From Patescibacteria group bacterium (GTDB lineage: Bacteria > Patescibacteriota > Dojkabacteria > J137): a stretch of 42,204 nt of DNA. How positions within the stretch are numbered: the first letter of the stretch is position 1; every line of letters begins with the position of its first letter. The notes beneath the pieces are model-generated. The model did no database searches. It was not told the DNA's origin and worked only from the letters and a program-made list of their open reading frames with translations. The stretch lies in contig CAUJCN010000002.1 of the NCBI GenBank assembly GCA_963169855.1, positions 775,608-817,811 on the forward strand, in the 5' to 3' direction. The position numbers and the translations under genes are program-made. Positions 1-25,928 of the stretch are shown here, piece by piece.

Positions 1-3000
1 AGTAGCTAGAGTTAATAACTCTGTTGCGTGAGTGTTTACAACATCGCCTAGATCAGCTAGAGAAACGTTTTGTGAATCTACTGTTAACCCAATGGTTTCA
101 AGAATAACTTCGTTGTCATCTACTTTAGTATTAAGTTCCTGAACAGCCTTCATTGTTAGTGGTAATAATCTAGTTGTAGAAATGCTGTAGTATCCAGTGT
201 CTTCTAGATATACAGCTGAAGGGAAAGCTTCAAGCAAGTTTTGTGCAATAAATCCTGTTTGTAAATCTCCCGCTGTCTCTACCTTGCCTTCTGATTCAAT
301 TCTTCTGAAATCAGAAATTACTATACCCATTAATGATTGTAGGCCTTCTATTGTTGTAGGAGCAATGTCTGTTTTTAATCTTTCGTCTGAAGTTCCTCCA
401 AATTCTAATGTTCCAGCATTAGATCTAATTGATTGAATTGCTGTTCCATCTCCGTCAACAATATCAATGAATCTACAAATACCGGTTGTAGAACAGTTGT
501 CCGAGTTTGCTTGTATTCGAATACCTCTTGCGTCGTCTGAGTTACCATCCACCTCTATTCTTAATCCAAATTGCCTAGTTCCTGCAGGGGCATTTCTAAA
601 TACTGATACTTGTGAAGTAGCATCGTGAACTGTATTAATTGCTAAACTACCTCCTGATGCTCTAGATGTAGCTATAGAGGCTCTTAAATTACCATTATCC
701 TGAGTAACATAAAGGTATTTGCCATTAGGTGTCATAGCAATGAATCTCTGGTTTACAGTGTCTTGAAAATTATCACCTGCTGCAGTCCAAGTAACTCCAT
801 GATCAAATGACATGAAGGAATCGTTACCTGCGATACCTGTTCTAAATGTAGCGAACTGTATTCTTCCATCGGATGTCATTGCAGTATCACTCCACTGTCT
901 TGCCGATTCCCTTGCAGTCCAAGTAACTCCATAATCAGAGGAAGTATATATATTTCCACCTTCGACAGCAGCGGTCATATACTGACCATTTGACGAAACA
1001 ACCATGCCCTCGGACCAGTTTCTATTAGCATCCCTAGCAGTCCAGGTAACTCCATAATCTGAAGAGACATATATCTGACCTCCAAATGCTACTGCAGCCT
1101 GATGTTTACCATCTGAGGACATTCCAGCTCCATTCCAAAGCCTTGAAGATTCTCTTTGTGTCCAAGTAACTCCGTAATCGGATGAAGTATAAATGAATCC
1201 AGGTGTACCATTCCCTACAACTGCGGTAATGTATCTACCATCTGCTGAAATTGCGGACTCATCCCAAGTTCGAGCCGCCTCCCTCGCAACCCATGTTACT
1301 CCATAATCAGAAGATACCTGTAGTTGAGATCCCGCAGCAGTAGCAATCTGGTACTTTCCAATGGCAGATACTTCAACAGAAGTCCAAGAAAGAGCACCAC
1401 CTCTCAAGTTCCATGTAAGTCCAAAGTCAGAAGATTCGCGAATCTGTTCTCCCCCCTCAACGACTGAAACATATCTACCATTAGAAGACATACCTATGCC
1501 TGTAGGCGCGGATAGCAAGCCGTGGTTGGATCTTGAGAACCAAGCTGTACTAAAAGAACTCTCATCTATTTCGAAAGAATCCTGTTGAACAATATTTGAT
1601 CCATAAAGTGCTCCACCATCGGTCTGAACTACAAGATTGTTATTTATAGATGCATCGTTGAATACATCTAGGGATCTTCCTGGAGTATCATACTGAACTC
1701 CAACATTTCCAGCGTTATCGATTATGAAAGGTGTAGTATCGGCTGCCACATCATTTACTCGCATGCTTGTTCCTATTCCTTGATTCTCTATAAACAAGGC
1801 TCTAGCTGCGGAAGCTGGACCAGAGATTATAAGTTCTAGTAAATCTCCTGTATTAGCAGCATTGTTTCCTGTAAGTGCGATTCTGTGTAAATCACCAGTA
1901 AATGCTGTAGACGTACTAGTTATATCGAATCCTCTTCCACTTGTTAATGAGTTAGCTACTTGAGTATATCCAGTTGTTGTTGTACCAGGGAAGGTTTGAG
2001 TTATCGCTCCCACAGCGTCTATTGCTAACCTTGTTGTTCCACTTGTTTCAAAAGCTAATCCAAATGCATCGTTTGTTCCTAAAACTGCACCTGCTCCAAA
2101 AGTGTTTCCGTTCTGGTAGAAACACGCACTAATTGCACAGTTAGCAAGTAAATCGATGTTGACAGTTGCAGTTCTAAAGTTTAAGTTAGTACCATTCCAC
2201 CATAAATCGCCACTGTTAGGTGCTGCTGGGTTAACACCTGCACTACTCACGATTCTGAGTGACGATTGTGCTGCAGTTGCCGCTTGAATGCTTAAAAGTG
2301 CAGTAGGGTTGTTTAATCCGATACCTATTCTATCTGTACTTGCATCTACAAAGAAAAGGTTAGCTTCTGTATCTCCTTCTATTCTTAGGTCGTCATCTTC
2401 TCCTGCTTCGTTGAATACTAATGATCCTACTCCTGCTGTGTCGAACGAAATATCGTAATCATCTGCTGATGTTCCAATATTTAATGTGGCTGGTCCTAAG
2501 TATAAGTCTCTAAATCTGTTTGTAGTTGAACCTAGGTCATAAGTATCATCCACATTTGGTGTTAAGTGACCTGAAGTATCTAATGTTAATCTTGTTGTTC
2601 CATCTGTCTCAAATGCAAGTCCAAAAGTATCGTTTGTTCCCAGAACTGCTAAGGCTCCGAATGAATCTCCGTTTTGATGGAAACATGTTGTACATGCTCC
2701 TCCCGCTAACAAGTCATGTGTAGTCGTACCGTCGTCAAAGTATAAGTTAGTACCATTGAACCATAAGTCACCAGCATTAGGAGCAGATACATCTACAGCG
2801 GCACTAGGACTAAGATTTAGTTGTGCAGTTGTAGTTGTATTCGCTCCGATATCTAACCAAGAAGCACTGTTAGCAGCTGTTCCGATTCCAGTAGTACCAC
2901 TTACTGTTAGGTCTTGATTTACAGTTACATCTCCAGCATTACTTATAGCTACTTGAGTTGCTCCATTAGTTTCGAAGTTGAAACCAAAGTTATCGTTTGT

Positions 3001-6000
3001 TCCGATCGTCATAGCTCCACCAAAAGTATTTCCCCCTTGAAGAATTACATTTGATAGGTCAACTCCATTGATTAAGCCAGAACAATCTAAGTCTCCAGTA
3101 GTTGCATCAATAGTACAACCAGTTGAAGCGTCTCCTCCACCTAAGTTGATAGTATTTGATGCTCCTCCAATATTTACTGTAGTAGCGTTAGTGTTGAATA
3201 TGTTCGCTGTTGCGTTTGTTGTTGTAATGTCTCCTCCGTTTACTGCTAGATCTCCTCCAAAAGTTGCATTATTAGTACAGCTAAAGTTACCTGCTGTTCC
3301 ATCTACTGTACAACCAGTTGAAGCATCTCCACCCATTAAGTTCATAGTTCCTGAAGCACCTGCGATGCCTAAGTTAATTGTTGTAGCAGCTCCGAATCCA
3401 TTGATTACTGTAGCTCCTGTATTTACTAAGTTGAAAGTACCTGCTGTTGTTGTTAAGTCTCCACCGTTTATTGCTAAGTCATTATTCAATGTTAAGTTTC
3501 CTGCTGTAGATAATGTTGCATGAGTTGTTCCGTTTGTTTCTAAAGATAAACTGAAGTTGTCGTTTGTACCCAAAACTGCGTTAGCACCAAAAGTGTTTCC
3601 GTTTTGAATATATGCTTGTGATAAATCAACTCCGTTAATTAATCCAGAACAATCTAAGTCTCCAGTTGTTCCATCAATTGTACAACCAGTAGAAGCTGAG
3701 CCACCCATTAAGTTCATTGTTCCAGATGCACCTGCTATTCCTAAGTTAACTGTTGTTGCTGCTCCAAATCCATTTACTGTTGTTGCATTTGTATTAATTA
3801 AGTTGAATGTGGCTGCTGATGTAATTAAATCTCCTCCATTTACATTCACATCCCCTCCGAATGTTCCGTTTCCAGTACAATCAATACTTCCTGTTGTTGT
3901 ATCCATTGTACAACCAGTAGATCCAGATCCACCTCCGAAGTTTATTATATTAGAAGCTCCTCCAATGTTTACTGTTGTTGCGTTAGTTTGGAATAAGTTT
4001 GCAGTTGCGTTTGTTGTTGTAATGTCTCCGCCGTTTACTGCTAGGTCGTTATTGATAGTTACATCTCCACCTGTACCAATCGACATGTGAGTAACATTGT
4101 TAGTCTCGAAGTTTAATACAAAGTTGTCGTTAGATCCTAATATAACTGGTCCTCCAAAAGTGTTTCCACCATTCACTAGTACGTTTGTTAGGTCTACTCC
4201 ATTGATTAAGCCAGAACAATCTAAGTCTCCAGTAGTTGCATCAATAGTACAACCAGTTGAAGCGTCTCCTCCACCTAAGTTGATAGTATTTGATGCTCCA
4301 CCAATATTTACTGTAGTAGCGTTAGTGTTGAATATGTTCGCTGTTGCGTTTGTTGTTGTAATGTCTCCTCCGTTTACTGCTAGATCTCCTCCAAAAGTTG
4401 CGTTATTAGTACAACTAAAGTTTCCAGCTGTTCCATCTACTGTACAACCAGTTGAAGCATCTCCACCCATTAAGTTCATAGTTCCAGAAGCTCCAGCAAT
4501 TCCTAGGTTAACAGTTGTAGCAGCTCCGAATCCGTTGATTGATGTAGCTCCTGCATTTACTAAGTTGAAAGTACCTGCTGTTGTAATTAAATCTCCTCCA
4601 TTTACGTTTACATCTCCACCAAATGTTCCATTTCCAGAACAGTCTATGCTTCCTGTTGTTGTATCCATTGTACAACCTGTAGATCCGGATCCTCCTCCGA
4701 AGTTTATTGTGTTTGCAGCATCGCCCATGTTTATGGTTGTTGCATTTGTTGTGAATAGATTTGCAGTTGCATTAGTTGTTGTAATATCACCTCCGTTTAC
4801 TGCTAAATCGTTGTTGATAGTTACATCACCTGCATTACTAATGGACATTTGTGTAACATTATTAGTTTCGAAGTTTAAAGCAAAGTTATCGTTAGATCCG
4901 AAAGTTACTGGTCCACCAAAAGTATTTCCTCCATTTAGAAGAACATCAGTAAGATCTACACCGTTAAATAGGCCAGTACAATCAATATTTCCTGAACCAT
5001 CGATAGTACAACCAGTTGACCCTACACCACCCGCTAAGTTTAGGGTAGTTGTTGCGCCAAATGCGTTTACAGTGGTAGCGTTAGTATTTAATAGGTTGAA
5101 TGTGGCTGCTGTAGTTGTCAGATCACCTCCATTTACGGCTAAGTCGTTGTTAAATGTAAAGTCTCCTGCTGTCGATAATGTTGCATGAGTTGTTCCATTA
5201 GTTTCAAATGACAAAGAGAAGTTGTCGTTAGTTCCTAATACTGCGTTAGCTGAAAATGAGTTTCCTCCTTGTTCAAAGAAATCCCCTGATGCTCCACCCA
5301 CGATGTTTCCAGTACATGTAAAGTCTCCCGTTACACCGTTAATAGTACAACCAGTATCAGCGGAACCTCCCATTAAGTTCATGGTTCCAGTTGCTCCAGT
5401 TCTACCAACATTAAATGTTGTAGCACCAGCAGATGTAAACACGTTTACAGTAGCAGATGTTGAAGAAATATCTCCACCATTTACTGCGAGATCGTTCGTC
5501 AGAATTAAATCTCCAGAAGTACCGTCAAATGTTGCTCTAACTAATGCATCAGTTATAAAGGTTAAATCGGTATCATTGCTTGTAGCTATTAAAGCTGAAT
5601 CCATTTCTTGGAAAGCCAAAACTCCCAAGTACTGATTTGCAAAACCGAAAGTAGTACCTACTCCACTAACTCCATAAGATTGAAGTCGAGAAGATGCACT
5701 TGAAGTTGAATAATCAGAGCTTTGTAGTTCAATTGTAGCTTGATCTACTTGTGCCGCGTTACCCATTACATCAATGTTAGCTCCCCCGTCTCCGCCGTAA
5801 ACATATAATCTACTGTTGTTTCCAATTCCTCCAAAATTCGTGTCTGTTCCCAAGAGAACATCTCCATCGTTTTCTATTCGTAAAGCAGTTTGGCTAGTTG
5901 TTTGACTGAAAAGATCAAAAGAAGATGATCCAGGTCCTAAAGCACCCACTCTCAATTGCCACTCTTGTGTTCCAAGTTGTGTATTTCGCAAAGCCATTAA

Positions 6001-7380
6001 AGGTCTTGCTCCCTCGACTGTTACACCTTTTCTATGAATAACGAAAGTTCTTGTTGTTACATTCGCAGTAAAGGCTGGAGTAACTGTAAAGTTAGTTCCT
6101 GTTCCACCTACTGTAACTACTCTAGATTGAGTCGATTGTAAGTTAGGAACAATATAGTCTCCCACGTTAAGTGTTATTACCGCATCAGTTGTGAATGTTG
6201 AGTTTCCGTTTACAGCAGTCATTGTAGTAGCACCACTTGTAGAACCTGATCCACCAGTTACGATATGTACTTGAGACGTAGCTGTTGTTGTTGCAACCCC
6301 CAAAGTCCCATCGGCTCCTAATCTCATCTTCTCTGCTCCATTGGTTTCGAAGGCTAGACTAAAGTTATCGTTAGTACCAAGTACTGCTAATGCTCCAAAA
6401 GAATCTCCACCATCGTGGAAACAAGTTATACACGGAGATCCTGCTAATAGGTCAAATGTTGTTGTACCATCATCGAAATAAAGGTTGCTTCCATTAAACC
6501 AAAGGTCTCCAGCGTTAGGAGCTGCTACATCCACTGCAGCACTTGGTGTGAGATTTAGTTGTGCAGCTGTTGTCGTGTTCGCCCCTATATCTAACCAGGC
6601 TGCTGTTGTAGCACCAGCACCAATTCCTGTAAATCCTCCGTTAGCTACTTGGAAAACCGTGGTTGATGTATTTTGTAATCTTAATAAATCTGGAGTTCCT
6701 GCTCCGTTTTCGTTGATATTTAATAGAGGGTTAGCTGTGTTAGCTGTAGTTTCAAGGTTTATAAGAGTATTAGCACTTGTAGTTGTTTGAACAGCTCCAG
6801 GTCTAAATTGTACAAAGTCTGCGGAAGTTAAATTATCTAAGTAAGAAGCTGATACAGCATATCTAGCAGAAGCTACATCTCTAATTTCTACTCTACTGAA
6901 TGTCTCGGAGAATGTACTCGTTCCTGTTGGATCGAATTCTATTTCTATCCAAAGATCTGTTGCTGAGAAGTCTACTCCTCCGTTACTTATACAAGGGTCT
7001 GCATTGTCTGTCCAATTACCATCTGTTCCAGTATCACTTACTACGTTACATATACTATTGATTTCTAGATTGAATATTCCGTTGTATCGACCAATCTCTG
7101 TATTTATGTGATCTTCTGAGAAAAGAAGATTTCCTGCTGTTGGATCATCATAGATATTTACTCTAAAGTCGCAAGTGTCATTACTGTTTCCTGCTACTAC
7201 GCAAGCTGGTGATCCTGTGTCGATGTTTGTTCCATCTACTAGGTTTACTATTTTACTTTGGAAGTTTAGGGTATTTGATGATGCTGAAACGGAGCTACTC
7301 GTGGCGGTGGAGAAAAGTACGCCAATAGAAATAGCTATACTGAATACAAGTGATCTTTTTAAAAATAGTTTTATTTTCAT
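1..7380 (-). CDS. Giant secreted tail-fibre-like adhesin with Asp-box propeller and peptidase S74 intramolecular chaperone (partial, >2460 aa, 3' end outside window)
   Basis: Manual translation from ATG 7380 (MKIKLFLKRSLVFSIAISIGVLFSTATSSSVSA, Sec-signal-like). No in-frame stop was found down to base 1 (most of the ORF read codon by codon, the internal repeats partly by similarity to their copies). Contains T/G/N-rich repeats, the PNVDDTYDLGSTTNRFRDLYL fibre motif, six SxDxGxTW boxes and SDERLKTDI...GFIAQ...KAVQEL. Absent from the ORF track because its stop lies outside the window. Confidence 0.93.
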   Translation of the reverse strand, partial: MKIKLFLKRSLVFSIAISIGVLFSTATSSSVSASSNTLNFQSKIVNLVDGTNIDTGSPACVVAGNSNDTCDFRVNIYDDPTAGNLLFSEDHINTEIGRYNGIFNLEINSICNVVSDTGTDGNWTDNADPCISNGGVDFSATDLWIEIEFDPTGTSTFSETFSRVEIRDVASARYAVSASYLDNLTSADFVQFRPGAVQTTTSANTLINLETTANTANPLLNINENGAGTPDLLRLQNTSTTVFQVANGGFTGIGAGATTAAWLDIGANTTTAAQLNLTPSAAVDVAAPNAGDLWFNGSNLYFDDGTTTFDLLAGSPCITCFHDGGDSFGALAVLGTNDNFSLAFETNGAEKMRLGADGTLGVATTTATSQVHIVTGGSGSTSGATTMTAVNGNSTFTTDAVITLNVGDYIVPNLQSTQSRVVTVGGTGTNFTVTPAFTANVTTRTFVIHRKGVTVEGARPLMALRNTQLGTQEWQLRVGALGPGSSSFDLFSQTTSQTALRIENDGDVLLGTDTNFGGIGNNSRLYVYGGDGGANIDVMGNAAQVDQATIELQSSDYSTSSASSRLQSYGVSGVGTTFGFANQYLGVLAFQEMDSALIATSNDTDLTFITDALVRATFDGTSGDLILTNDLAVNGGDISSTSATVNVFTSAGATTFNVGRTGATGTMNLMGGSADTGCTINGVTGDFTCTGNIVGGASGDFFEQGGNSFSANAVLGTNDNFSLSFETNGTTHATLSTAGDFTFNNDLAVNGGDLTTTAATFNLLNTNATTVNAFGATTTLNLAGGVGSTGCTIDGSGNIDCTGLFNGVDLTDVLLNGGNTFGGPVTFGSNDNFALNFETNNVTQMSISNAGDVTINNDLAVNGGDITTTNATANLFTTNATTINMGDAANTINFGGGSGSTGCTMDTTTGSIDCSGNGTFGGDVNVNGGDLITTAGTFNLVNAGATSINGFGAATTVNLGIAGASGTMNLMGGDASTGCTVDGTAGNFSCTNNATFGGDLAVNGGDITTTNATANIFNTNATTVNIGGASNTINLGGGDASTGCTIDATTGDLDCSGLINGVDLTNVLVNGGNTFGGPVILGSNDNFVLNFETNNVTHMSIGTGGDVTINNDLAVNGGDITTTNATANLFQTNATTVNIGGASNIINFGGGSGSTGCTMDTTTGSIDCTGNGTFGGDVNVNGGDLITSAATFNLINTNATTVNGFGAATTVNLGIAGASGTMNLMGGSASTGCTIDGTTGDLDCSGLINGVDLSQAYIQNGNTFGANAVLGTNDNFSLSLETNGTTHATLSTAGNLTLNNDLAINGGDLTTTAGTFNLVNTGATVINGFGAATTINLGIAGASGTMNLMGGDASTGCTVDGTAGNFSCTNNATFGGDLAVNGGDITTTNATANIFNTNATTVNIGGASNTINLGGGDASTGCTIDATTGDLDCSGLINGVDLSNVILQGGNTFGGAMTIGTNDNFGFNFETNGATQVAISNAGDVTVNQDLTVSGTTGIGTAANSASWLDIGANTTTTAQLNLSPSAAVDVSAPNAGDLWFNGTNLYFDDGTTTHDLLAGGACTTCFHQNGDSFGALAVLGTNDTFGLAFETDGTTRLTLDTSGHLTPNVDDTYDLGSTTNRFRDLYLGPATLNIGTSADDYDISFDTAGVGSLVFNEAGEDDDLRIEGDTEANLFFVDASTDRIGIGLNNPTALLSIQAATAAQSSLRIVSSAGVNPAAPNSGDLWWNGTNLNFRTATVNIDLLANCAISACFYQNGNTFGAGAVLGTNDAFGLAFETSGTTRLAIDAVGAITQTFPGTTTTGYTQVANSLTSGRGFDITSTSTAFTGDLHRIALTGNNAANTGDLLELIISGPASAARALFIENQGIGTSMRVNDVAADTTPFIIDNAGNVGVQYDTPGRSLDVFNDASINNNLVVQTDGGALYGSNIVQQDSFEIDESSFSTAWFSRSNHGLLSAPTGIGMSSNGRYVSVVEGGEQIRESSDFGLTWNLRGGALSWTSVEVSAIGKYQIATAAGSQLQVSSDYGVTWVAREAARTWDESAISADGRYITAVVGNGTPGFIYTSSDYGVTWTQRESSRLWNGAGMSSDGKHQAAVAFGGQIYVSSDYGVTWTARDANRNWSEGMVVSSNGQYMTAAVEGGNIYTSSDYGVTWTARESARQWSDTAMTSDGRIQFATFRTGIAGNDSFMSFDHGVTWTAAGDNFQDTVNQRFIAMTPNGKYLYVTQDNGNLRASIATSRASGGSLAINTVHDATSQVSVFRNAPAGTRQFGLRIEVDGNSDDARGIRIQANSDNCSTTGICRFIDIVDGDGTAIQSIRSNAGTLEFGGTSDERLKTDIAPTTIEGLQSLMGIVISDFRRIESEGKVETAGDLQTGFIAQNLLEAFPSAVYLEDTGYYSISTTRLLPLTMKAVQELNTKVDDNEVILETIGLTVDSQNVSLADLGDVVNTHATELLTLAT
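130..390 (-). other. Peptidase S74 / intramolecular chaperone autoprocessing (ICA) domain within the giant protein
   Basis: TSDERLKTDIAPTTIEGLQSLMGIVISDFRR...TGFIAQNLLEAFPSAV...YYSISTTRLLPLTMKAVQEL; the Ser (388-390) and Lys of the dyad are present. Confidence 0.9.
787..1434 (-). repeat. Six Asp-box (BNR) repeats, probable beta-propeller
   Basis: SSDFGLTW, four SSDYGVTW and SFDHGVTW, spaced about 40-43 aa apart. Confidence 0.9.
2040..6610 (-). repeat. Internal coding repeats of the giant protein
   Basis: Eight GN/DxFG..(L)G(T/S)ND.F.L.FET units and nine GCT(I/V/M)(D/N)-C disulfide-like units. DNA direct repeats include about 3062-3450 vs 4196-4585 (offset 1134 nt) and the module near 2849 vs 6587 (offset 3738 nt). 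Confidence 0.9.
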
Positions 7381-16282: not shown

Positions 16283-18061
16283 ATGGATCAGGCGCTGAAT
16301 AACAAAAGCATAAGAGGTTTAAGCTCTCTTCTTGACGCCCTTTTGGTAAAGAATCTGATCACTCAAGAAGATTATAACCTTATAAAGCTGGAATCTGTAA
16401 ATAAATCTGTTCCTGCTGATCAGATAGTAAAAGAAAAAGCTATTGTAACTTCGGATGATATTGCGAAGCTCTATTCAGAGATGAAAGGCATCGGGTTTAT
16501 CGATTTATCTTCTATCGGAATTAACATTGAAACTCTTCATAAACTAGAAAAAGATGCTGCAAAAAATTCGATGGCTATTGTTTTCGAAGAACTGCCAAAC
16601 AAATTCAAAGTAGCAATGAGAGACCCTTTGGATCTTCAGAGAATAAAATATTTAGAAGCAATTCTGGGTAAAAAATTAGAAGTTTACTATGCTTCAGAAG
16701 ACGATATAAATACAATTATCGAATCTAAATACGGAGCACAGATTACTAAAGATGTAGACGAGGCTCTAGAACAAGTAGGAGGAGATAAATTACTTGATAT
16801 TAATGCGGTACAAGAAAACGAGATTACAAGTGATCCTCAGAATGCTCCGATAATTAGAATAGTAAATATGATTCTAGATTATGGAATAAAAAACAAAGCT
16901 TCGGACATCCACATTGAATCTCGAGAAAAAAAAGTAAACGTTAGATTCAGAATAAGAGGAATTTTGAGTGAAAAACTTACCATTCCAAAGAAACTTTTAC
17001 CTGCAGTTGTGTCTAGAATTAAGATTCTTTCTAATTTAAAAATTGATGAACACAGAGTTCCCCAAGACGGTAGATTTCAAGTTAAATTAGGTGAGGTAAT
17101 TGTTGATATCAGAGTTTCGATAATGCCAAATATCTACGGAGAAAAAATCGTAATGAGACTTCTTTCTAAAACTGAAAGTGTTTTGAAAATCGAAGAACTA
17201 GGCATGAGGGGAATAAACTACTCTAGAATGACAGAAGCATTGAAAAAAACTCAAGGAATTATAATCGTTAGTGGTCCTACAGGAAGTGGTAAAACTCAGA
17301 CATTAGCTAGTTCTTTAAAAATTCTGAATACTCCAGAAGTTAATATTATGACTCTGGAAGATCCGGTAGAAATTAGAATAGATGGAATTACTCAAGTTCA
17401 AGTTAATCCAGAAGTTGGATTAACTTTCGCGTCCGGATTAAGATCTTTTCTTAGACAAGATCCAGATGTAATCATGGTTGGAGAAGTTAGAGACTCCGAA
17501 ACTGCTGCTCTGGCTGTGCAATCAGCATTGGTGGGACGTTTGGTTTTGACAACATTGCACACAAATAGTGCATCAGGATCCTTCATCAGATTACTAGATA
17601 TGGGAATAGAGCCATTCTTACTCTCTTCTACAATCGATTTAATTCTTGCCCAAAGACTTGTTAGAGTTTTATGCGACAATTGTAAAGAAGCTCATGAAGC
17701 TGCCCCTGAGCAAATGAAAGAACTTCACGAAGAGTTAGATATTCTAAATTCATTTGATATTTTCAATCCCGACCATACTGTAAAAGCACATTTTGATAGA
17801 AGTACAGAAAAAGTTACTCTATATAAACCAAAGGGTTGTCCAAAGTGTAATGATACTGGATATATTAGTAGAACAGGAATTTTCGAAGCGTTAAAAATGA
17901 GCGAGACAATCGCAAGAGCTGTGATTCAGAAACAGACAATCAAAGAAATCCAAGATCTTGCAATTTCAGAGGGAATGATTACAATGGTTCAAGACGGGTA
18001 CATAAAAGCTTTAGAAGGAATTACAACTTTAGAAGAAGTTATTAGAGTAAAGAATGAATAG
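16283..18061 (+). CDS. pilB: Type IV pilus assembly ATPase (PilB/GspE family)
   Basis: ASDIHIE, PQDGR, Walker A GPTGSGKT, LRQDPDVIMVGEVRD, CxxC...CxxC zinc motif. Confidence 0.95.
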   Translation: MDQALNNKSIRGLSSLLDALLVKNLITQEDYNLIKLESVNKSVPADQIVKEKAIVTSDDIAKLYSEMKGIGFIDLSSIGINIETLHKLEKDAAKNSMAIVFEELPNKFKVAMRDPLDLQRIKYLEAILGKKLEVYYASEDDINTIIESKYGAQITKDVDEALEQVGGDKLLDINAVQENEITSDPQNAPIIRIVNMILDYGIKNKASDIHIESREKKVNVRFRIRGILSEKLTIPKKLLPAVVSRIKILSNLKIDEHRVPQDGRFQVKLGEVIVDIRVSIMPNIYGEKIVMRLLSKTESVLKIEELGMRGINYSRMTEALKKTQGIIIVSGPTGSGKTQTLASSLKILNTPEVNIMTLEDPVEIRIDGITQVQVNPEVGLTFASGLRSFLRQDPDVIMVGEVRDSETAALAVQSALVGRLVLTTLHTNSASGSFIRLLDMGIEPFLLSSTIDLILAQRLVRVLCDNCKEAHEAAPEQMKELHEELDILNSFDIFNPDHTVKAHFDRSTEKVTLYKPKGCPKCNDTGYISRTGIFEALKMSETIARAVIQKQTIKEIQDLAISEGMITMVQDGYIKALEGITTLEEVIRVKNE

Positions 18062-19196
18062 TCAAAATCAGCAAACAAACGAAGAAATAAAAGTATACTC
18101 TGCTCCACAGTCTAATTCGCAGGTAGAACCAGAACAAAAGACTTTAACACTTGAAGACATGCTACTTCTTGGAATTCAAACTCAGGCTTCTGATGTTCAT
18201 ATCACTTCGAACTATAAGCCAACTTTAAGAATAAACGGAAATCTTCAAGCTTTAAAATACAGAGATCTTTATCCTGATGAAGTTTTTAATTTCGCAAAAC
18301 AAATTCTTGCGAGTAAAAAAGATATAAATTTTGATGACTTCTATCAAGCTGATACAACATACGTTGTAAATGGCAGAAGGTTTAGAATTAATGTCTTCAA
18401 ACAATCTGGAACTTATTCAATTGCAGCTAGAGTTATTTCTGAAAGTATTCCTCAATTAGAAGTTTTAGGATTACCTCCAATTGTAAAAGATTTTGCCAAA
18501 TTCCCAAATGGTTTAGTTTTGCTAACAGGTCCAACAGGAAGCGGAAAATCCACAACTATCGCTTCTCTAATCAATCTAGTTAATATTACAGAATCTAAAC
18601 ACGTTATCACTTTAGAAGATCCGATTGAATATATTTTCCCAAAAGGACAATCTTTAATTGAACAAAGAGAATATCAAAGTGACTTTGATACTTGGCCAAA
18701 CGGGTTGAAAGCAATCTTAAGACAAGATCCAAATATTGTTCTATTAGGAGAAATGAGAGATTCCGATACTATCGAATCAGCTATTAGAATTGCAGAAACA
18801 GGACACCTAGTATTCGCTACTCTACACACTAATAGTGCTGCTCAGAGTATAGACAGAATTGTGGATATTTTCCCTGGGGAAAAACAAGATCAAATTAAAG
18901 TACAATTAGCTTCTGTTTTACAAGCAATCGTTTCTCAGAAATTAGTAAGAACAATACAAGGAAGTCGAAAATTAGCAACAGAAATACTTATTGCTAACTC
19001 TGCAGTAAGAAATACAGTTAGAGAAAGTAAAGGATATCAGTTAGATAACATTATTCAAACAAGCAACGATTTAGGAATGCAAAGTTTAGAAAAATCTTTG
19101 GTAAACTTAGTAAAGCAAGGTCATATTACAATCGATACTGCAAAAAGCAACGCTAATAGACCAGCAGATATTGATTCGTTATTAAATAGAGTCTAA
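18054..19196 (+). CDS. pilT: Type IV pilus retraction ATPase
   Basis: ASDVHI, GPTGSGKSTT, TLEDPIE, AETGHLVFATLHTNSA, AVRNTVRE (AIRNLIRE-like). Confidence 0.93.
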   Translation: MNSQNQQTNEEIKVYSAPQSNSQVEPEQKTLTLEDMLLLGIQTQASDVHITSNYKPTLRINGNLQALKYRDLYPDEVFNFAKQILASKKDINFDDFYQADTTYVVNGRRFRINVFKQSGTYSIAARVISESIPQLEVLGLPPIVKDFAKFPNGLVLLTGPTGSGKSTTIASLINLVNITESKHVITLEDPIEYIFPKGQSLIEQREYQSDFDTWPNGLKAILRQDPNIVLLGEMRDSDTIESAIRIAETGHLVFATLHTNSAAQSIDRIVDIFPGEKQDQIKVQLASVLQAIVSQKLVRTIQGSRKLATEILIANSAVRNTVRESKGYQLDNIIQTSNDLGMQSLEKSLVNLVKQGHITIDTAKSNANRPADIDSLLNRV

Positions 19197-20428
19197 TGGC
19201 AGAATTCAGATACATAGCATTAACAAGTTCAGGTCAGACTGTAGAAGGTACAAAGTCTGGAGATTCTGAGCAGGAGATAATCGAATATCTAAAGTCGACA
19301 AATCTTAATCCAGTTTTAGTTGAAGAAAAACTTTCCTTCAATATAAATAAAGCATTGAATGTAGAAATCGGTGGAATTTCTCTTAACGAAAAAGTTATTT
19401 TCACCAAACAACTTTCTACTATGATTGGCGCTGGAATTCCAATCGTTCAGGCATTGGATATTCTTGTTCAACAAACAGAAAAACAATCAATTAAAGATAA
19501 GTTTGTGAGGGTTTATAAATCTGTAGAGGCAGGAATGAGTTTGTCTGAAGCATTCAGAAAAGAAACGGGACTGTTGAATGAAATTCAAATTAATCTGATG
19601 TCTGCTGGAGAAAAAAGTGGAAATCTTACAGAAATGATGCAAAAAATTTCGGAAGATTTAGCTAAATCAAAAAATCTAAGAGGAAAAATTACAGGGGCAC
19701 TAATCTACCCTGCAATCATTTTCGTTGTTATGGGTGGAGTTTTGTTTGTAATGATTACATTCATGGTTCCTCAAGTAAAAGAACTGTACTCTTCGTTGGG
19801 TCAGGATGAATTACCATTCATAACTCAAATGCTAGTGAATATTGGAGAAAACTTAGGAAAAGTAGAGACGATTTTAATACTTGCTACGTTAGCTGTGACA
19901 GGGTTTTTGGGTTATAGGTATTACTACTCTACTCCTGGAGGAAGGATCAGAATTGATAGTATTAAATTGAGAATTCCAATTTTCGGAAATCTTACAAGAA
20001 AAGTTGAGGTTGCTGAATTCTGTAGAATAATGTCTATGCTTTTAGCTAGTGGAATTCCGGTTATAGAAGCAATGGAAATTACAGGAAGAGCAATGCAGAA
20101 TGGTGTTTTCCAAAATATTATTTTGAAAGCTAAAGACGAAATTACTGTTGGAAACTCTATGTCTATCAGCATTGCAAAATATAATACTAAAAATGGATTT
20201 CCGCCAATTCTTTTGAGAATGCTTGCTACTGCAGAAGAATCAGGAAAAGTTGGATTCGTTCTTGATGATCTTTCTGCTTTCTATCAAGAAGAAGTTGATC
20301 AGATAGCAGGTAATTTATCAAAACTTGTAGAACCAATAATCCTTGTGATTGTTGGAATTATGGTAGGTTTCCTAGCTGTTGCAATTTATCTTCCAATCTA
20401 TCAAGTTGGTCAAATTGTGGGACAGTAA
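19196..20428 (+). CDS. pilC: Type IV pilus platform protein (PilC/GspF)
   Basis: FTKQLSTMIGAGIPI, GEKSGNL, ALIYPA, LVEPIILV, AIYLPIY. Confidence 0.95.
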   Translation: MAEFRYIALTSSGQTVEGTKSGDSEQEIIEYLKSTNLNPVLVEEKLSFNINKALNVEIGGISLNEKVIFTKQLSTMIGAGIPIVQALDILVQQTEKQSIKDKFVRVYKSVEAGMSLSEAFRKETGLLNEIQINLMSAGEKSGNLTEMMQKISEDLAKSKNLRGKITGALIYPAIIFVVMGGVLFVMITFMVPQVKELYSSLGQDELPFITQMLVNIGENLGKVETILILATLAVTGFLGYRYYYSTPGGRIRIDSIKLRIPIFGNLTRKVEVAEFCRIMSMLLASGIPVIEAMEITGRAMQNGVFQNIILKAKDEITVGNSMSISIAKYNTKNGFPPILLRMLATAEESGKVGFVLDDLSAFYQEEVDQIAGNLSKLVEPIILVIVGIMVGFLAVAIYLPIYQVGQIVGQ

Positions 20429-20533
20429 CATCATTATCCCCCACTCTCTAGAGTCCTTACCTGCTTATTTTCAGAGGAGAAATTCGGATCTTATTGTGTT
20501 GCTAATGACACATCTTAAACCTCCTTCATCCTA

Positions 20534-20562
20534 TTGCACTTTGTTCTCCATACTATTAAACT
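20534..20562 (+). promoter_or_regulatory. sigma70-type promoter upstream of the first pilin
   Basis: TTGCAC-N17-TAAACT in the only large intergenic gap of the pilus cluster. Confidence 0.6.
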
Positions 20563-20596
20563 GAAATAGATATCTTATTTTTTATTTAATCAGTTT

Positions 20597-21055
20597 ATGC
20601 ATAAAAAGAAAAATGCATTTACGCTAATAGAATTGATGGTTGCTATGGGAATCATCGGTGTATTAGTTACTCTTTCTCTTTTGGGAATCACTATTGTTCA
20701 AAGATCACTTAGAGATACTCAAAGAAGAGATAGTGTTAACGCTGTTAGACTAGCTGTCGAAGGTCATTACACAAACAACTCAGTTTACCCAGACATTGAA
20801 ATCCAAGTTGGAGGAAATGCTATGTTAGTAGGCAATGAGGAAGTTGAGCTTAATGGACCTGGGAAAGCTTGTCCATCAGGAACATCCGTAGCAGATGCAC
20901 AGAGCGACTCAAGTTGTTCTATCTATTGTTACGACACAGACGGTAATACTTACTCGTTAGGAGTTATGGTAGAAGGAGGTACAATTACTCAAGTAGGAAA
21001 CTCTGGAGATGATTGTAGCTTAACTACACCTAATGATAGAGTTCCATACGAATAA
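20597..21055 (+). CDS. Type IV pilin, candidate major pilin
   Basis: KKKNA|FTLIELMVAMGII class III signal; four Cys in the C-terminal half; has its own promoter. Confidence 0.9.
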   Translation: MHKKKNAFTLIELMVAMGIIGVLVTLSLLGITIVQRSLRDTQRRDSVNAVRLAVEGHYTNNSVYPDIEIQVGGNAMLVGNEEVELNGPGKACPSGTSVADAQSDSSCSIYCYDTDGNTYSLGVMVEGGTITQVGNSGDDCSLTTPNDRVPYE

Positions 21056-21056
21056 G

Positions 21057-21536
21057 ATGAAAAAAGGTTTCACCTTAATTGAAATCTTAATATTCATGGG
21101 AATAGCAGCAGTTTTACTGCTGCTATCTTTCCAGGGAATTCAAATTCTACAAAGAAATAGTAGAGATACCGAAAGAAAAAATCTTGGAGGTGAGATCGAT
21201 ACTATGTTAAATAAATATAAAAGAGATAATCTAAGATTCCCAGCAAATACGAATGTAAGTTTTCAGCAAAACCGGTTCACAATAACAGGTCTTTCTGAAA
21301 GTTTAGAATTGGATGGATTTTTAGGTTCAAGTGAACTGTCCAATTCAGGAAGTACACATTACCTTTACAACTATATTAGTTCTTCGGAATATCAGCTCTG
21401 CGTTCAATTAGAAAGCGGATCATATGAAGAGTATGGAACGATTCCTTGTCCTACTCCTCCTCAACAACTAACAGGAGAATCGGTTAAAGATTTAGAGACC
21501 GGAACCGGAGGCAGAGGTCCAGTATCTCCAGTTTAA
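21057..21536 (+). CDS. Type IV pilin
   Basis: MKKG|FTLIEILIFMG; CVQLE...C D-region. Start placed at 21057; the track gives 21033. Confidence 0.9.
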   Translation: MKKGFTLIEILIFMGIAAVLLLLSFQGIQILQRNSRDTERKNLGGEIDTMLNKYKRDNLRFPANTNVSFQQNRFTITGLSESLELDGFLGSSELSNSGSTHYLYNYISSSEYQLCVQLESGSYEEYGTIPCPTPPQQLTGESVKDLETGTGGRGPVSPV

Positions 21537-21546
21537 AAATAATTAT

Positions 21547-22275
21547 ATGACAGCATTAGTAATTTCGATAATTGGAGGTTTTATAACATTGATATTCTCC
21601 TCTATTCTTTCGTCTTTTATAAACGAAGAAAAGTTCTCTTTTAAAACAACGATGAATTTGAAAGAAGTACTTGGAGGATTCGTTTTCTTTTTATCTGGAG
21701 CAATTTTCGTTGGCCATTTATTCAGTTTGAATCTAGGAGGTGCTTTGTGGATGTATTTAGCAATTTTCGCTAGCGTCTTTGTTGGGCTTATCTATCTAAC
21801 AATTTGGGATCTTCACACACTTTCCATTCCAGAAAGATTTACGAATTTATTTTTGCTTTTTGTAGTTCTTATCAATTTTGTAATTGGTCTAGCTAATTAT
21901 ATGGAGTTTAATTCAGTTGGTGAATTAAGTTTAGGAAGTCTATACATTGGAACTGTTGGAAATATCTTCGCAGGTCTTGGATTAGCAGCGTTAATTTACC
22001 TTTTACACAAATTTACAAAAGGCAAAGGAATTGGAGATGGAGATATCTATATTTATGGATTAATCGGTTTTATTTTTGGAATTCCTTTGTCTTTAGGATT
22101 TATTATCATTTCTTCTCTTGTTGGAGGATTAATCGCAGCTGTTTTAATTTTAGCTTATTGGAAAGATAGACAGAAAATTCTTAAAACTAGAATTCCTCTG
22201 ATGCCAATAATCTTGATTGCATTTGTATTTACTCTACTCGTTCAAAATCAGCTTTATTCAATTTTTACTATATGA
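21547..22275 (+). CDS. pilD: Prepilin peptidase (A24 family)
   Basis: Multi-TM protein with both catalytic Asp motifs (IWDLH, GIGDGDI) and C-terminal RIPLMP; lies within the pilin cluster. Confidence 0.85.
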   Translation: MTALVISIIGGFITLIFSSILSSFINEEKFSFKTTMNLKEVLGGFVFFLSGAIFVGHLFSLNLGGALWMYLAIFASVFVGLIYLTIWDLHTLSIPERFTNLFLLFVVLINFVIGLANYMEFNSVGELSLGSLYIGTVGNIFAGLGLAALIYLLHKFTKGKGIGDGDIYIYGLIGFIFGIPLSLGFIIISSLVGGLIAAVLILAYWKDRQKILKTRIPLMPIILIAFVFTLLVQNQLYSIFTI

Positions 22276-22784
22276 AAGCATTCACTTTGATAGAACTGAT
22301 GGTTGTTTTTGGAATTATTGCTTTAACTTTAGGCCTAAGTATTTTTGGTTTGACTAGATTTAGAGCAAGCGTAGAACTTAATACTGCTTATACAAATGTA
22401 ATTTCTTTAATTAATAATACTCGGAACAAAGCTACAAATGCTTTCGGTGGAAGTTCTGGGGGTTCTTTACAAATTCGAGACTTGTTTGGCGTAGATTTTC
22501 AATCTCAGCAAGTGAATTCAATAGTGTGTACAGCAAATACAGATGCGACAGTATATAGTTGTCAAAACACGGCTGATAGTCCTATTTCGCTTAACAACAT
22601 GACAATTAACGTTGTTGGTTGCGATACACGGTTCGGATTTAAGAGACTTACTCAAGATTTGATTAGTCTAACAAATGTAAACACTGTTGTTGCTTCTGGA
22701 ATTTGTAGTGTAGAGATTAGACATTCATTTACAAATGAAGTCAAAACTATTACCATAAATTTAGTCGAAAACTCTTATAAATAA
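22272..22784 (+). CDS. Minor pilin
   Basis: MKA|FTLIELMVVFGII. Confidence 0.88.
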   Translation: MKAFTLIELMVVFGIIALTLGLSIFGLTRFRASVELNTAYTNVISLINNTRNKATNAFGGSSGGSLQIRDLFGVDFQSQQVNSIVCTANTDATVYSCQNTADSPISLNNMTINVVGCDTRFGFKRLTQDLISLTNVNTVVASGICSVEIRHSFTNEVKTITINLVENSYK

Positions 22785-23485
22785 TGAGAAAAGTAATTAT
22801 GAAAAATGCATCAGGTTTAGTAGAAGTTCTTATTGTTATGGCAATAATTGGAACTACTCTAGTTTCCTCTATGTTATTAGTTTCGAGAGGGTTTATCGAA
22901 GTAAAAAATAATCAGACTGAAGACTCTATTAACGGTATTATTGTGCAAGTTCTAGATAGAATCAAAAACTCCACTGCTCTTGAAATTATTAACTCAGAAT
23001 TTAATACACTAACGTCAACAGGGACTAGAAATTTTTACTTGAATGGACAAAATATCCTCACTTTGGACAACTTTGAATCACCTTCGGCAGATATAACTAC
23101 TTGTACTCCTACTAGTCAGTACAATGTAATAGCAAAAGAAATTGCAAGTAGTAGTTTGGTAAATAGTTTGTGTATTCAAATAAAACTTAGAAAACAAACA
23201 ACTGCAGTTAATGATAGGTTCGTAGGAACTGTCGTTTACGCATATACTTTGAATCAAGAAAATATAGTTTCCAAACTAGATTTCGTTAAATATAACACTT
23301 TCACAGTTACTGGTGTTCCTGGTGGAGCAACCTCTACAGGAGGCTCTGCAACAGGCGGTTCAGCTACAGGGGGAACGTTAACAGGAGGGTCTGCAACGCA
23401 AGGGACACCAATTACAGGAGGTACATTTACTGGTGGAAGCACCAATGATAATAATTCTTCTACAACAGGAGTAGAATTGTTCTAA
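22784..23485 (+). CDS. Minor pilin-like protein with Gly/Thr/Ser repeat tail
   Basis: KNA|SGLVEVLIVMAII (Glu at +5); C-terminal TGGSA-type repeats. Confidence 0.8.
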   Translation: MRKVIMKNASGLVEVLIVMAIIGTTLVSSMLLVSRGFIEVKNNQTEDSINGIIVQVLDRIKNSTALEIINSEFNTLTSTGTRNFYLNGQNILTLDNFESPSADITTCTPTSQYNVIAKEIASSSLVNSLCIQIKLRKQTTAVNDRFVGTVVYAYTLNQENIVSKLDFVKYNTFTVTGVPGGATSTGGSATGGSATGGTLTGGSATQGTPITGGTFTGGSTNDNNSSTTGVELF

Positions 23486-23487
23486 AT

Positions 23488-23964
23488 ATGAAAAAACTCA
23501 AAGGATATTCGTTAGTAGAAGTTGTAGTAACCCTGGGAATAATAGGGATTCTTATTATTATGCTTTTTAATGTGATTCTATTAGCACTAAGATCAAATAC
23601 AAAAATAGCAGGTAGAAGTTTCATTAGAGAGCAAATGTCTGCAGTACTAACGCAGTTATCCAGAGAAGTCAGGAATTCAACAACCCTTCTTGATTGTTTT
23701 GAAGGAAGTTGCGAAATGACCTTAACTGGCAAGACTATTAGATGGGAGGCTTGTGCTTCTAGCATTTGTAGATTAGAAAATGGGGTGCTAACACTTCAGA
23801 CCTCTGATACAATGCAAGTAGAGGAATTTTCTTTTGATTCTTATACAGGATCAAATAATAACGATGTGGTTCTTGTAACAATTATTGCAGGACATTCTAA
23901 TCAGGCTTTAGAAATTCAGAATTTAGTCACTCAGATATCAGCTTCAACCAGAAATTATGAATAA
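23488..23964 (+). CDS. Minor pilin (PilW/GspJ-like)
   Basis: KLKG|YSLVEVVVTLGIIGIL. Confidence 0.85.
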   Translation: MKKLKGYSLVEVVVTLGIIGILIIMLFNVILLALRSNTKIAGRSFIREQMSAVLTQLSREVRNSTTLLDCFEGSCEMTLTGKTIRWEACASSICRLENGVLTLQTSDTMQVEEFSFDSYTGSNNNDVVLVTIIAGHSNQALEIQNLVTQISASTRNYE

Positions 23965-24877
23965 GAATACTTTGAAAGGACAAATATTAGTAATTACTCT
24001 ACTTACTCTAACTATCATTGGAGTTCTGGTTGTTACCATAGTATTAGTTACTCGAAGGGACTTTACACAAAGTGCTAATAGCGAAAAATACGAAAGACTT
24101 TATAATACTGCTGATAATAATCTTCAAAATTTATTAGCAGACTACTCTGTTCCGACAGCAAACCTTACAACACTACCAACTGGAACTTGTCAGACTTTGG
24201 TTTCAGGAAATTATTATAGATGTACTTACACAGCCCAAGAAGCTGCTTCCACATATACCTCTACTACAACTGTATTTGTAGAAAATAAAAAGAATATTGA
24301 AGACTATGTTCTAAAAAAAGATAACGCATTAATTCTTGATATCAATGCCTATTTAGGCGGATTTAATATTCAGTGGGATAAAGAAAATGTTGCCATGGAT
24401 GTAACTATTATTTTCTCTAACAACCAGTCTTTTGGAAGATTGAATATGACTAGAGATATTTATGATAGAAATTCTACAAAAGTAATTGATTCGCAGATTA
24501 TCCCTGGGTTTACTAACCTATTTCCTTTCGTACAAAGTACATCCACTCCATCTAGAGCATTCTTTCTTGACGTATCTGATACGTTTTTAGCACCATCAGC
24601 AATCCCTGGGTTCATCAACGCAAATGCTTACACACCTTTGTATATGGTTATAATCCCAAGATCAAAAAATATTAATGAAGAAGTAACTATCAACGTTACA
24701 CCAGATAATCCTTCTTCTTTGAGAAACCAAGTAAGAGAGTTCAGATCACTTAGCGAAGACTTGCAAGATCCTAATGGACCAAAGGCAAGCTTAATTGCAA
24801 GAGTACCTTTATTACCAGAGATTCCTGCTGCTCTATTGAATGGTATTACAGCAGGTGGTAACCTAGTTTTACAGTAA
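23957..24877 (+). CDS. Large minor pilin (PilX/GspK-like)
   Basis: LKG|QILVITLLTLTII lacks Glu5, as is typical of PilX/GspK; last of the minor pilins. Confidence 0.75.
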   Translation: MNKNTLKGQILVITLLTLTIIGVLVVTIVLVTRRDFTQSANSEKYERLYNTADNNLQNLLADYSVPTANLTTLPTGTCQTLVSGNYYRCTYTAQEAASTYTSTTTVFVENKKNIEDYVLKKDNALILDINAYLGGFNIQWDKENVAMDVTIIFSNNQSFGRLNMTRDIYDRNSTKVIDSQIIPGFTNLFPFVQSTSTPSRAFFLDVSDTFLAPSAIPGFINANAYTPLYMVIIPRSKNINEEVTINVTPDNPSSLRNQVREFRSLSEDLQDPNGPKASLIARVPLLPEIPAALLNGITAGGNLVLQ

Positions 24878-24887
24878 TATAAATTTT

Positions 24888-25928
24888 ATGGCAAACCTAC
24901 CAGACTTCATCGGAATTAATATTGGAAATTATAGTATCAAGGCAATCGAAGTTAGGCCTATAGGAGATACATTCGAATTGCTAAACTTAGCACAGGTTCC
25001 TTCTGCAAACGGAACAATAGAAAACATTAGCGTAGGAAATTTAGATATGCCAACAAATGATCTTCAAAAGTTACTTAAGGATAACAACTTCAAAACTAGA
25101 AATGCAGTATTTTCTGTTCCAGAATCCTTAGTTTTTTCTAGATTAGTTAATTTACCTAAAGTTAAGGACGAAGAAGTGGACGAGGCGATTAACTTTGCAA
25201 TGAAAAACTTGATCCCAGTTCCGTTAGAGAATCTGAACATTGCCTACTCCTTCATCGAAGAAAGAAAAACCGACACCAATATTTTTCAAAGCTGGTATGT
25301 TGTTGGAATCCAAAAAACTTTGTCCGATAGATTTAAAGACCTTGCTGGCAGAGTTGGTCTTAATCTTCTTGCTATAGAAACTGAGGCCTTGGCCTTAATC
25401 CGCAATATCGATTTCAACTATTCGGACACTGGAAAAAGAAGCTTCATGATTCTTGATTTTGGGGGAGAATATTCAAATTTAGTAATCTCAAGAAATGGCT
25501 CTGTCCTCTACTCTCAAAATATCTCGACGGGTTCTAATGCCCTTACGAAGATAATTGCAACTGACCTAGCCTTGGATATAAGTAAGGCAGAAGAATATAA
25601 GGAGAAAGCAGGCTTGGATGCAAATATGGGCGGAGGCAGAATCGCTAAAACAATAGAGCCGATAATACAAATCATCGTGTCCGAAATATCCAGAACCCTG
25701 GCTTACTATAATGACCGAATTGGTGGTGAGCCCGTGTCCGAATTGTATGTTACAGGAGGCGGCGGCGCTTTACCAAAACTTATTGAATACCTTACAGATA
25801 AAACTGGATTAAAAGTTACCTTGGTAGATAACTTTAGAAAAGTAAAATTGAAAGGAGATTTAAAAATAAATCAGTTAAGCTTCAACGTTGCTACAGGTTT
25901 AGCACTTAAGAGTTTAGAATTAATGTAA
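24888..25928 (+). CDS. pilM: Type IV pilus alignment protein PilM (actin/FtsA-like)
   Basis: IGINIGNYSIKAIE, ILDFGGEYS, YVTGGGG, NVATGLAL. Confidence 0.92.
   Translation: MANLPDFIGINIGNYSIKAIEVRPIGDTFELLNLAQVPSANGTIENISVGNLDMPTNDLQKLLKDNNFKTRNAVFSVPESLVFSRLVNLPKVKDEEVDEAINFAMKNLIPVPLENLNIAYSFIEERKTDTNIFQSWYVVGIQKTLSDRFKDLAGRVGLNLLAIETEALALIRNIDFNYSDTGKRSFMILDFGGEYSNLVISRNGSVLYSQNISTGSNALTKIIATDLALDISKAEEYKEKAGLDANMGGGRIAKTIEPIIQIIVSEISRTLAYYNDRIGGEPVSELYVTGGGGALPKLIEYLTDKTGLKVTLVDNFRKVKLKGDLKINQLSFNVATGLALKSLELM

Follow-up and report, generated by a model that had tools for sequence, protein, structure and literature searches.

A predicted seven-bladed Asp-box propeller as a candidate binding head of an exported S74 fibre in a Saccharibacterium

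The mosaic adhesive trimer (MAT) fibres of Bdellovibrio bacteriovorus, and in particular those of the S74 subgroup such as Bd3182 (Caulton et al. 2024, PMC10769870), are the closest described counterparts of the protein analysed here, a giant fibre carrying both a beta-propeller with Asp-boxes and a Peptidase_S74 domain encoded at the start of a 42,204-nucleotide stretch of DNA (hereafter the window; positions 775,608 to 817,811 of contig CAUJCN010000002.1, GenBank assembly GCA_963169855.1, Patescibacteria group bacterium). Like the MATs, this fibre is chromosomal, bears a signal peptide, resembles phage tail fibres and belongs to a bacterium living on other bacteria; it is likewise a member of a multi-paralogue family (21 in Bdellovibrio, seven here), carries a C-terminal S74 domain with the SDxxxK signature and is mosaic, with conserved and exchanged ends. 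The fibres of this genome, exported, mosaic, in several paralogues and ending in either S74 or Peptidase_G2, can be classed as MAT-type. Unlike the MATs (about 1000 residues, with a common beta-rich N-terminal domain of 130 residues), the fibre described here has 2590 residues and its family falls into two N-terminal classes; the element common to all members is C-terminal (chaperone, coiled coil and H-type-lectin-like domain), and the carrier is a Saccharibacterium, not a Gram-negative predator. The word 'propeller' is absent from PMC10769870, and we take it from this that no MAT tip has been described there as a beta-propeller.

The Asp-box propeller itself has precedents in three other systems. 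The endosialidase tailspikes K1F/endoNF (GH58; 1V0E, 3GW6) show the same order of Asp-box propeller, trimeric stalk and self-cleaving S74. Their propeller is six-bladed and catalytic, has few Asp-boxes and contains a lectin barrel as an insertion. The fibre propeller differs from them in its seven regular blades, the lack of a catalytic signature, the absence of a match among the 50 best structural hits and its cellular carrier. Vps10 is a ten-bladed propeller with 10CC modules that binds its ligand in a tunnel. Sortilin/Vps10, whose Asp-box propeller is non-enzymatic and acts as a receptor, resembles the fibre domain, which also matches its Pfam profile (see below); unlike it, the fibre domain has seven blades and no 10CC module, and a neck and S74 come after it. 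Ycf48 is a non-catalytic, free-standing lumenal assembly factor which binds a peptide. With Ycf48/HCF136 (2XBG, 5OJP; PMC2716378) the fibre propeller shares seven blades of ~41 residues and Asp-boxes in loop 3-4, but identity is only 16-20%, the propeller is here a module of a fibre, and nothing suggests a shared ligand.

A search of the whole fibre protein with the regular expression S.D.G.[TS][WFY] returned exactly six Asp-boxes, all at window 787-1434 on the minus strand, whereas 0.002 matches would be expected by chance from the protein's own composition. The boxes are spaced by 40, 43, 40, 41 and 44 residues, and 133 residues separate the end of the last box from the S74 serine in SDERLK; the original prediction, which had listed six SxDxGxTW boxes about 41 residues apart ending about 130 residues before the cleavage site, was accurate on both counts. 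The folded domain is wider than the stretch of boxes (Table 1). Strand-1/2 turns of the form S-x-[DN]-G-[KRQ]-[YH] number seven, 40-48 residues apart, against six Asp-boxes, the seventh blade (residues ~2211-2250) being without a box, and on the model the domain is a seven-bladed propeller, not a six-bladed one. For this model the segment comprising residues 1933-2331 was aligned with 65 relatives and submitted to AlphaFold2, which gave, as a prediction only, a pLDDT (predicted local distance difference test) > 90 across the propeller (model residues 25-310) and a pTM (predicted template-modelling score) of 0.80. A propeller upstream of an intact S74 domain, as had been proposed, is thus predicted, but with seven blades and over a wider span.

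Foldseek against the PDB gave more than 1800 propeller matches at E <= 0.001. The best specific ones were Ycf48 (5ojp, 2xbg), with a template-modelling (TM) score to target of 0.68-0.72; WD40 proteins reached 0.73-0.78, and the GH74 enzyme 5fkr was also among the seven-bladed matches. The TM scores refer to seven-bladed targets of 300 residues. When the propeller sequence was compared with PDB chains, only chance-level matches (E >= 0.17) were obtained. Pfam assigned BNR_6 (51 bits, cut-off 27), BNR (40 bits, cut-off 27) and Sortilin-Vps10 (35.2 bits, cut-off 33) to the propeller. Repeated boxes in a predicted closed fold place the domain among the Asp-box (BNR) propellers, and seven short, regular blades of ~41 residues in a single unit place it with the Ycf48 / YP_299179.1 type. 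The blades are 60-78% identical to each other at the DNA level and form no tandem DNA repeat, which rules out that they arose by duplication or gene conversion in the recent past; the propeller is therefore old rather than newly amplified. A second full copy of the propeller was not detected by phmmer in the fibre protein or in the genome.

The orthologous fibre of a congener (CAZYSE01) provided one pair of alleles for comparison. Shaft and C-terminal region are nearly identical between the two species, whereas the propeller is strongly diverged (Table 1): its synonymous divergence (dS) is approximately six- to nine-fold above that of the flanks, which is therefore not merely fast amino-acid change in place, and its ratio of nonsynonymous (dN) to synonymous divergence is about 0.25. 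The borders are sharp to a few residues, lying between ...QQDSFE and IDESS... on one side and between ...INTV and HDATSQVSVFRN... on the other. The two genomes thus appear to hold deeply diverged propeller alleles joined by recombination to near-identical flanks. When relatives were ranked by blastp score, the two congeneric propellers were each other's best match (332 bits, vs <= 228 bits for the 270 database relatives), and the exchange therefore stayed within this fibre lineage. Both alleles keep all six Asp-boxes and the seven strand-1/2 turns, which, together with the low dN/dS, indicates that the propeller fold is under selection. Within the blades, identity is 25% in loop 2-3 and 27% in loop 4-1, but 88% in the Asp-box (loop 3-4) and 70% in the strand-1/2 turn; pooled, 14/54 positions are identical in the top-face loops vs 63/78 at the bottom (Asp-box plus strand-1/2 turn; Fisher p = 3e-10). 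Quistgaard and Thirup noted that Asp-boxes lie on the face opposite to the functional one, and that in known Asp-box propellers the ligand-binding or catalytic residues reside in the variable top-face loop 2-3 (PMC2716378). The comparison of tips among related genomes, advised by the original prediction, has in this case revealed a clear module-specific divergence.

The family to which the propeller belongs is very large, with 13,500 cluster representatives matching at E <= 0.001, among which are many giant proteins with multiple propellers. Named relatives are annotated as 'photosystem II stability/assembly factor-like' or as 'WD40/YVTN/BNR-like repeat-containing protein', and elsewhere the family is fused to pilin N-termini, collagen, DUF7151 and Mtd_N+S74. 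An S74 domain lies downstream of the propeller in 10/270 relatives, in five of them after 114-206 residues. Several such proteins are public and uncharacterised: P0263 (Mtd_N + BNR + S74, 662 residues), P0218, P0097, P0124 and P0070. They have a propeller of the same family and S74 at 114-206 residues behind it, like the fibre here, but they are far shorter proteins, and some come from viruses. The predicted structure of BFVD A0A6J7WX40, an 'Intramolecular chaperone auto-processing domain containing protein' of an uncultured phage, aligns over 403 columns. Three further proteins (P0221, P0251, P0262) carry an Asp-box propeller of the same family behind a type IV pilin N-terminal methylation motif, which suggests that propeller-tipped pilins may exist in other organisms.

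Seven giant fibre open reading frames (ORFs) in this genome share the same C-terminal arrangement, in which an intramolecular chaperone is followed by a coiled coil and by a beta domain of ~70 residues; together they comprise 14,819 residues, about 4.2% of the genome. Four of the six paralogues cluster on contig 1, the family as a whole being spread over both contigs. The paralogue at C1:86986 has YadA_head repeats as its head, and in that at C2:292665 an LVIVD-repeat propeller is combined with a Peptidase_G2 chaperone, which stands where the others have S74; the remaining paralogues consist of shaft repeats with no recognised head, and the Asp-box propeller occurs only in the fibre of the window. 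The leader and the first 265 residues of the latter are 75% identical to those of the paralogue at C2:668270-673021 (blastp). That paralogue also has two tandem S74 domains about 250 residues apart (L022, G000:C2:669000-673400). The two N-terminal classes are unrelated: fibres of one have a cleavable signal peptide, those of the other a membrane anchor. Four paralogues belong to the latter; in these, a cytoplasmic tail at the N-terminus precedes a membrane-spanning helix, so that this end should be at the cell and the C-terminus directed outward. By analogy, the propeller would be located near the outer end of the window's fibre, and its N-terminal domain (residues 35-265) is presumed to be the cell-proximal end.

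At the other end of the protein, the Peptidase_S74 profile (PF13884) is covered entirely (1-58/58, E = 4e-10), with the S74 serine of SDERLK at residue 2331, and the Ser2331/Lys2336 dyad (SDxxxK) is invariant in 10 sequences, paralogues and orthologues included. Between the propeller and the cleavage site lies a neck of 78 residues; the propeller is thus not the very tip, where the original prediction had placed it after autocleavage. The neck is poorly predicted in the monomer model (low pLDDT for ~80 residues after the propeller), and the stretch preceding S74 in the G001 homologue aligns with it. It is probably a trimeric beta-structure that would become the true distal end once cleavage has occurred; a trimeric beta-helix is suggested by Bd3182, in which the end of the neck is after cleavage the extreme tip, as expected here (PMC10769870).

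Taking these results together, we consider it probable that a Ycf48-type, non-sialidase propeller serves as an exchangeable, non-catalytic binding head in an exported S74 fibre. The analysis directly supports the motifs and the class of fold, the cellular setting of the gene, its family of paralogues and the way in which divergence is distributed along the fibre. The fibre protein would be exported by the Sec pathway, its S74 chaperone would nucleate a trimer from the C-terminus and, most likely, would then cleave itself off at Ser2331. At its outer end the mature fibre would have a neck that is short, conserved and trimeric; beneath it the three propellers would form a collar, and their top faces (loops 2-3 and 4-1) might bind a glycan or protein on the surface of the partner cell. 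As the specificity module of the fibre, the propeller would have been exchanged for, or retained as, a deeply diverged allele between the two species, with recombination acting where it joins the shaft and where it joins the neck. We infer the polarity of the fibre, its trimerisation and the cleavage at Ser2331 from phage fibres and MATs, and binding and the nature of the ligand are likewise proposed by analogy. That the propeller would most likely act as a ligand-binding head and not as an enzyme is argued from its fold class, from the low conservation of the face on which an active site would lie and from the fusion of the propeller family to other stalks.

Several observations weigh against this reading. 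The analysis identified neither a ligand nor a binding pocket of the propeller, nor any residue conserved outside its repeat pattern; the extreme tip would be the conserved neck, not the propeller, and in Bd3182 the equivalent beta-helix carries a binding cleft that is exposed by cleavage (PMC10769870). The propeller is not general in the group: it was found in only 1/40 relatives, a species of the same genus, and 38/40 relatives are without it. Strands and loops were assigned to a 'top face' by means of the repeat register and a DSSP string, and the collections searched gave two alleles, so that the exchange of a cassette is claimed from one pairwise comparison: a search with residues 2245-2590 returned the query alone, a scan of JGI metagenomes only three distant S74 proteins (30-34% identity), and a scan of GTDB genomes for fibre alleles only the congener. 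Furthermore, 7/7 fibres keep a lectin-like domain on the very piece that cleavage should discard. This piece is expected to comprise 260 residues, and its last ~70-90 residues (residues ~2500-2590; L003:4-270, minus strand) resemble H-type lectins, namely the Helix agglutinins 4q56 and 2ccv. The match to the Helix pomatia agglutinin has a TM score to target of 0.56 and the C-terminal model, which also matches the MyRF ICA domain (7dc3) in Foldseek, has a pLDDT of only 61, so that the resemblance is to be read as a hint; Pfam H_lectin gives E = 0.17 in the window's fibre and 1e-4 in a paralogue. The lectin-like domain may be a trimerisation nucleus, may stay attached, or may act as a separate soluble lectin, and polarity or processing may differ from the phage model. 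It is mainly because this domain sits on the discarded chaperone that we rate the proposed mechanism as probable and no higher.

Some of these points would fit a different role, in which the propeller is a structural node or spacer, an assembly aid or a secondary binder, recognition is left to the neck or to the lectin-like domain, and the divergence reflects relaxed constraint. The cleft in the pre-S74 beta-helix of Bd3182 and the retention of the lectin-like end domain throughout the family speak for such a role, as does the fact that most paralogues do without any propeller. We nevertheless regard it as unlikely, since the dN/dS of the propeller points to purifying selection, the Asp-boxes and turns are maintained in both alleles, the variation is concentrated on one face, and the elevated dS is not expected from relaxed constraint; moreover, the neck is 98% identical between the two species and cannot explain differences in specificity.

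The original prediction had also proposed that the tip might cut host surface glycans, by analogy with the endosialidases. The propeller would then be a glycoside hydrolase, whether of the sialidase or endosialidase kind or a different Asp-box glycosidase, acting on the glycans of the partner cell, as K1F/endoNF does, a reading encouraged by the endosialidase precedent of a propeller combined with S74, by the GH74 enzyme 5fkr at rank 40 of the Foldseek matches, and by the fact that glycosidases are the best-known Asp-box propellers (PMC2716378). The analogy fails at the level of the fold, because the domain has seven blades of ~41 residues and not six long ones and belongs to the Ycf48 / 'WD40/YVTN/BNR-like' type, and among the best 50 PDB matches there was no sialidase and no endosialidase. 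No FRIP/RIP motif ([FYW]R[IVL]P or R[IV]P) was found anywhere in the fibre protein, and no BNR_2, sialidase or endosialidase family of Pfam matched it even at E <= 1, in line neither with GH33 nor with GH58, which are defined by a six-bladed catalytic fold. GH74 enzymes need two propellers in tandem, and only a single one is present here; the sole NCBIfam match, 'F510_1955 family glycosylhydrolase', scores 38 bits, far under the cut-off of 175, and was not counted as evidence. The top-face loops, in which the catalytic residues of known Asp-box glycosidases are seated, are the least conserved part of the propeller. Hydrolysis is thus unsupported and we think it very unlikely, whereas binding of a glycan or another surface structure by the propeller is plausible.

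If the gene encoded the tail fibre of a phage or prophage, intact or as a remnant, the propeller would be a phage receptor-binding domain, and the match of the shaft to phrog_4527 'short tail fiber protein' (E = 1e-25), the S74 domain, which is typical of phage fibres, and the BFVD phage proteins combining a propeller with an intramolecular chaperone are all compatible with that origin. The very long PHROG 4527 is matched by the shaft (window 1567-6585, minus strand) in six stretches. The genomic setting is that of a cellular gene. The genome (1.06 Mb, two contigs, 97% complete) comes from an ultrasmall, probably epibiotic bacterium, the window is chromosomal DNA, and housekeeping genes, not phage structural genes, stand on both sides of the fibre gene: gyrB and gyrA upstream, and an S8 subtilase followed by RuvB, RuvA, RuvC, DnaB and L31 downstream. 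RecG, ribosomal protein S16, RNase III and a type IV pilus operon are also encoded in the window. When the neighbouring genes were tested against PHROG, none matched a phage family except the S8 subtilase, whose match is to a general protease family. The Sec signal peptide, the seven paralogous fibres over both contigs, four of them membrane-anchored, and the synteny of the locus with the congener, in which the S8 subtilase also follows the fibre gene (L005:3-698), further contradict a phage origin, which we regard as highly improbable; the fibre is an exported cellular protein of the phage-tail-fibre type, and not a phage gene.

Diversification of the propeller in place by a mutagenic system, either a diversity-generating retroelement (in which Patescibacteria are rich) or silent cassettes, would account for localised variation with sharp borders but is the most improbable of the explanations considered, because a blastn search of the entire genome with the DNA of the propeller gave the self-match only and no second DNA copy of any part of it is available as a retroelement template or a cassette, because synonymous sites are saturated (dS 1.5) and all four bases are affected, which is not retroelement-like, and because the known retroelement targets are C-type-lectin or Ig folds and not propellers.

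The fibre gene is a single minus-strand ORF running from window position 7380 to 1 and for another 390 nucleotides beyond the window start (G000:C2:775215-782987), and its parts are listed in Table 1. The nested repeat units of the shaft have the forms GNxFG...LGTNDNF..FETNG and C-x9-10-C. On the opposite strand, plus-strand ORFs are present at window 4097-5188, 3068-3523 and 5222-5635, the longest of 363 residues; most likely these are not genes but shadow frames, produced by the Gly/Thr/Asn-rich repeats that the fibre gene encodes. The S8 subtilase (L002:9906-11585, minus strand; Peptidase_S8, E = 3e-40) lies directly 3' of the fibre gene, outside the window, and is secreted; its target might be the fibre, which it would process, or the partner cell. 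The full set of genes for a type IV pilus is located at window 16283-27128 on the plus strand, 9 kb from the fibre gene, and includes two ATPases, one of them a PilB-like T2SSE ATPase, together with a platform protein, PilM-like genes and five or more N_methyl pilin-like ORFs. Saccharibacteria are known to attach by means of pili.

Table 1. Parts of the fibre protein, its Asp-boxes, the congener comparison by region, and the paralogues. Residues refer to the fibre protein; coordinates refer to the window unless stated otherwise.
Feature	Residues	Coordinates	Strand	Basis or value
Sec-type signal peptide (...SVSA/SS)	1-34	7279..7380	-	read from sequence
N-terminal domain, common to one paralogue	35-265	6586..7278	-	blastp
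Fibre shaft, nested Gly/Thr/Asn-rich repeats	266-1938	1567..6585	-	phrog_4527 match, congener comparison
Seven-bladed Asp-box beta-propeller (predicted)	1939-2252	625..1566	-	regex, Pfam, AlphaFold2, Foldseek, turn motifs
Neck, propeller to cleavage site	2253-2330 (78)	391..624	-	congener identity, alignment with the G001 homologue
Peptidase_S74 intramolecular chaperone, start	Ser2331, Lys2336	1..390	-	Pfam PF13884
Coiled coil, then H-type-lectin-like end domain		reaching 390 nucleotides beyond the window start	-	models/Foldseek
Asp-box 1, SSDFGLTW	1983	1411-1434	-	regex
Asp-box 2, SSDYGVTW	2023	1291-1314	-	regex
Asp-box 3, SSDYGVTW	2066	1162-1185	-	regex
Asp-box 4, SSDYGVTW	2106	1042-1065	-	regex
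Asp-box 5, SSDYGVTW	2147	919-942	-	regex
Asp-box 6, SFDHGVTW	2191	787-810	-	regex
Shaft vs congener	1435-1938			identity 95.8%, dS 0.25, dN 0.022
Propeller vs congener	1939-2252			identity 55.7%, dS 1.5, dN 0.38
Neck, S74 and end domain vs congener	2253-2590			identity 97.6%, dS 0.16, dN 0.011
Six paralogues, outside the window		C1:74048-78703, C1:86986-97584, C1:99820-105102, C1:105300-109214, C2:292665-300164, C2:668270-673021 (G000)		1304-3532 residues

Type IV pili and a few adhesins have so far been implicated in the way in which ultrasmall Patescibacteria find and hold their host bacteria (PMC10633639, PMC12206443); the fibre adds a concrete candidate. In the literature searched, Saccharibacteria or Patescibacteria have not been linked by any paper to S74 or tail-fibre-like proteins, although coverage was incomplete and absence is unproven. 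The parts are each known, and similar proteins combining a propeller with S74 are public, so that the interest of the fibre lies in its evolutionary signal and its setting and not in a new fold or mechanism: the only strongly diverged part is one compact domain, which should lend itself to expression, and the changes fall on the face which Asp-box propellers use. The finding would extend the idea of the 'mosaic adhesive trimer' from Bdellovibrio to another phylum and lifestyle and would add a propeller to the heads found on such fibres. We suggest, as a tentative generalisation that may well not hold, that Saccharibacteria, and perhaps other ultrasmall episymbionts, recognise their hosts with self-cleaving trimeric fibres, and that recombination of the head at the shaft/head and head/neck junctions changes specificity in a phage-like manner. 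If this is true, the propeller allele would be a determinant of host range, and the seven fibres, which take up 4% of a 1-Mb genome, would constitute a recognition toolkit.

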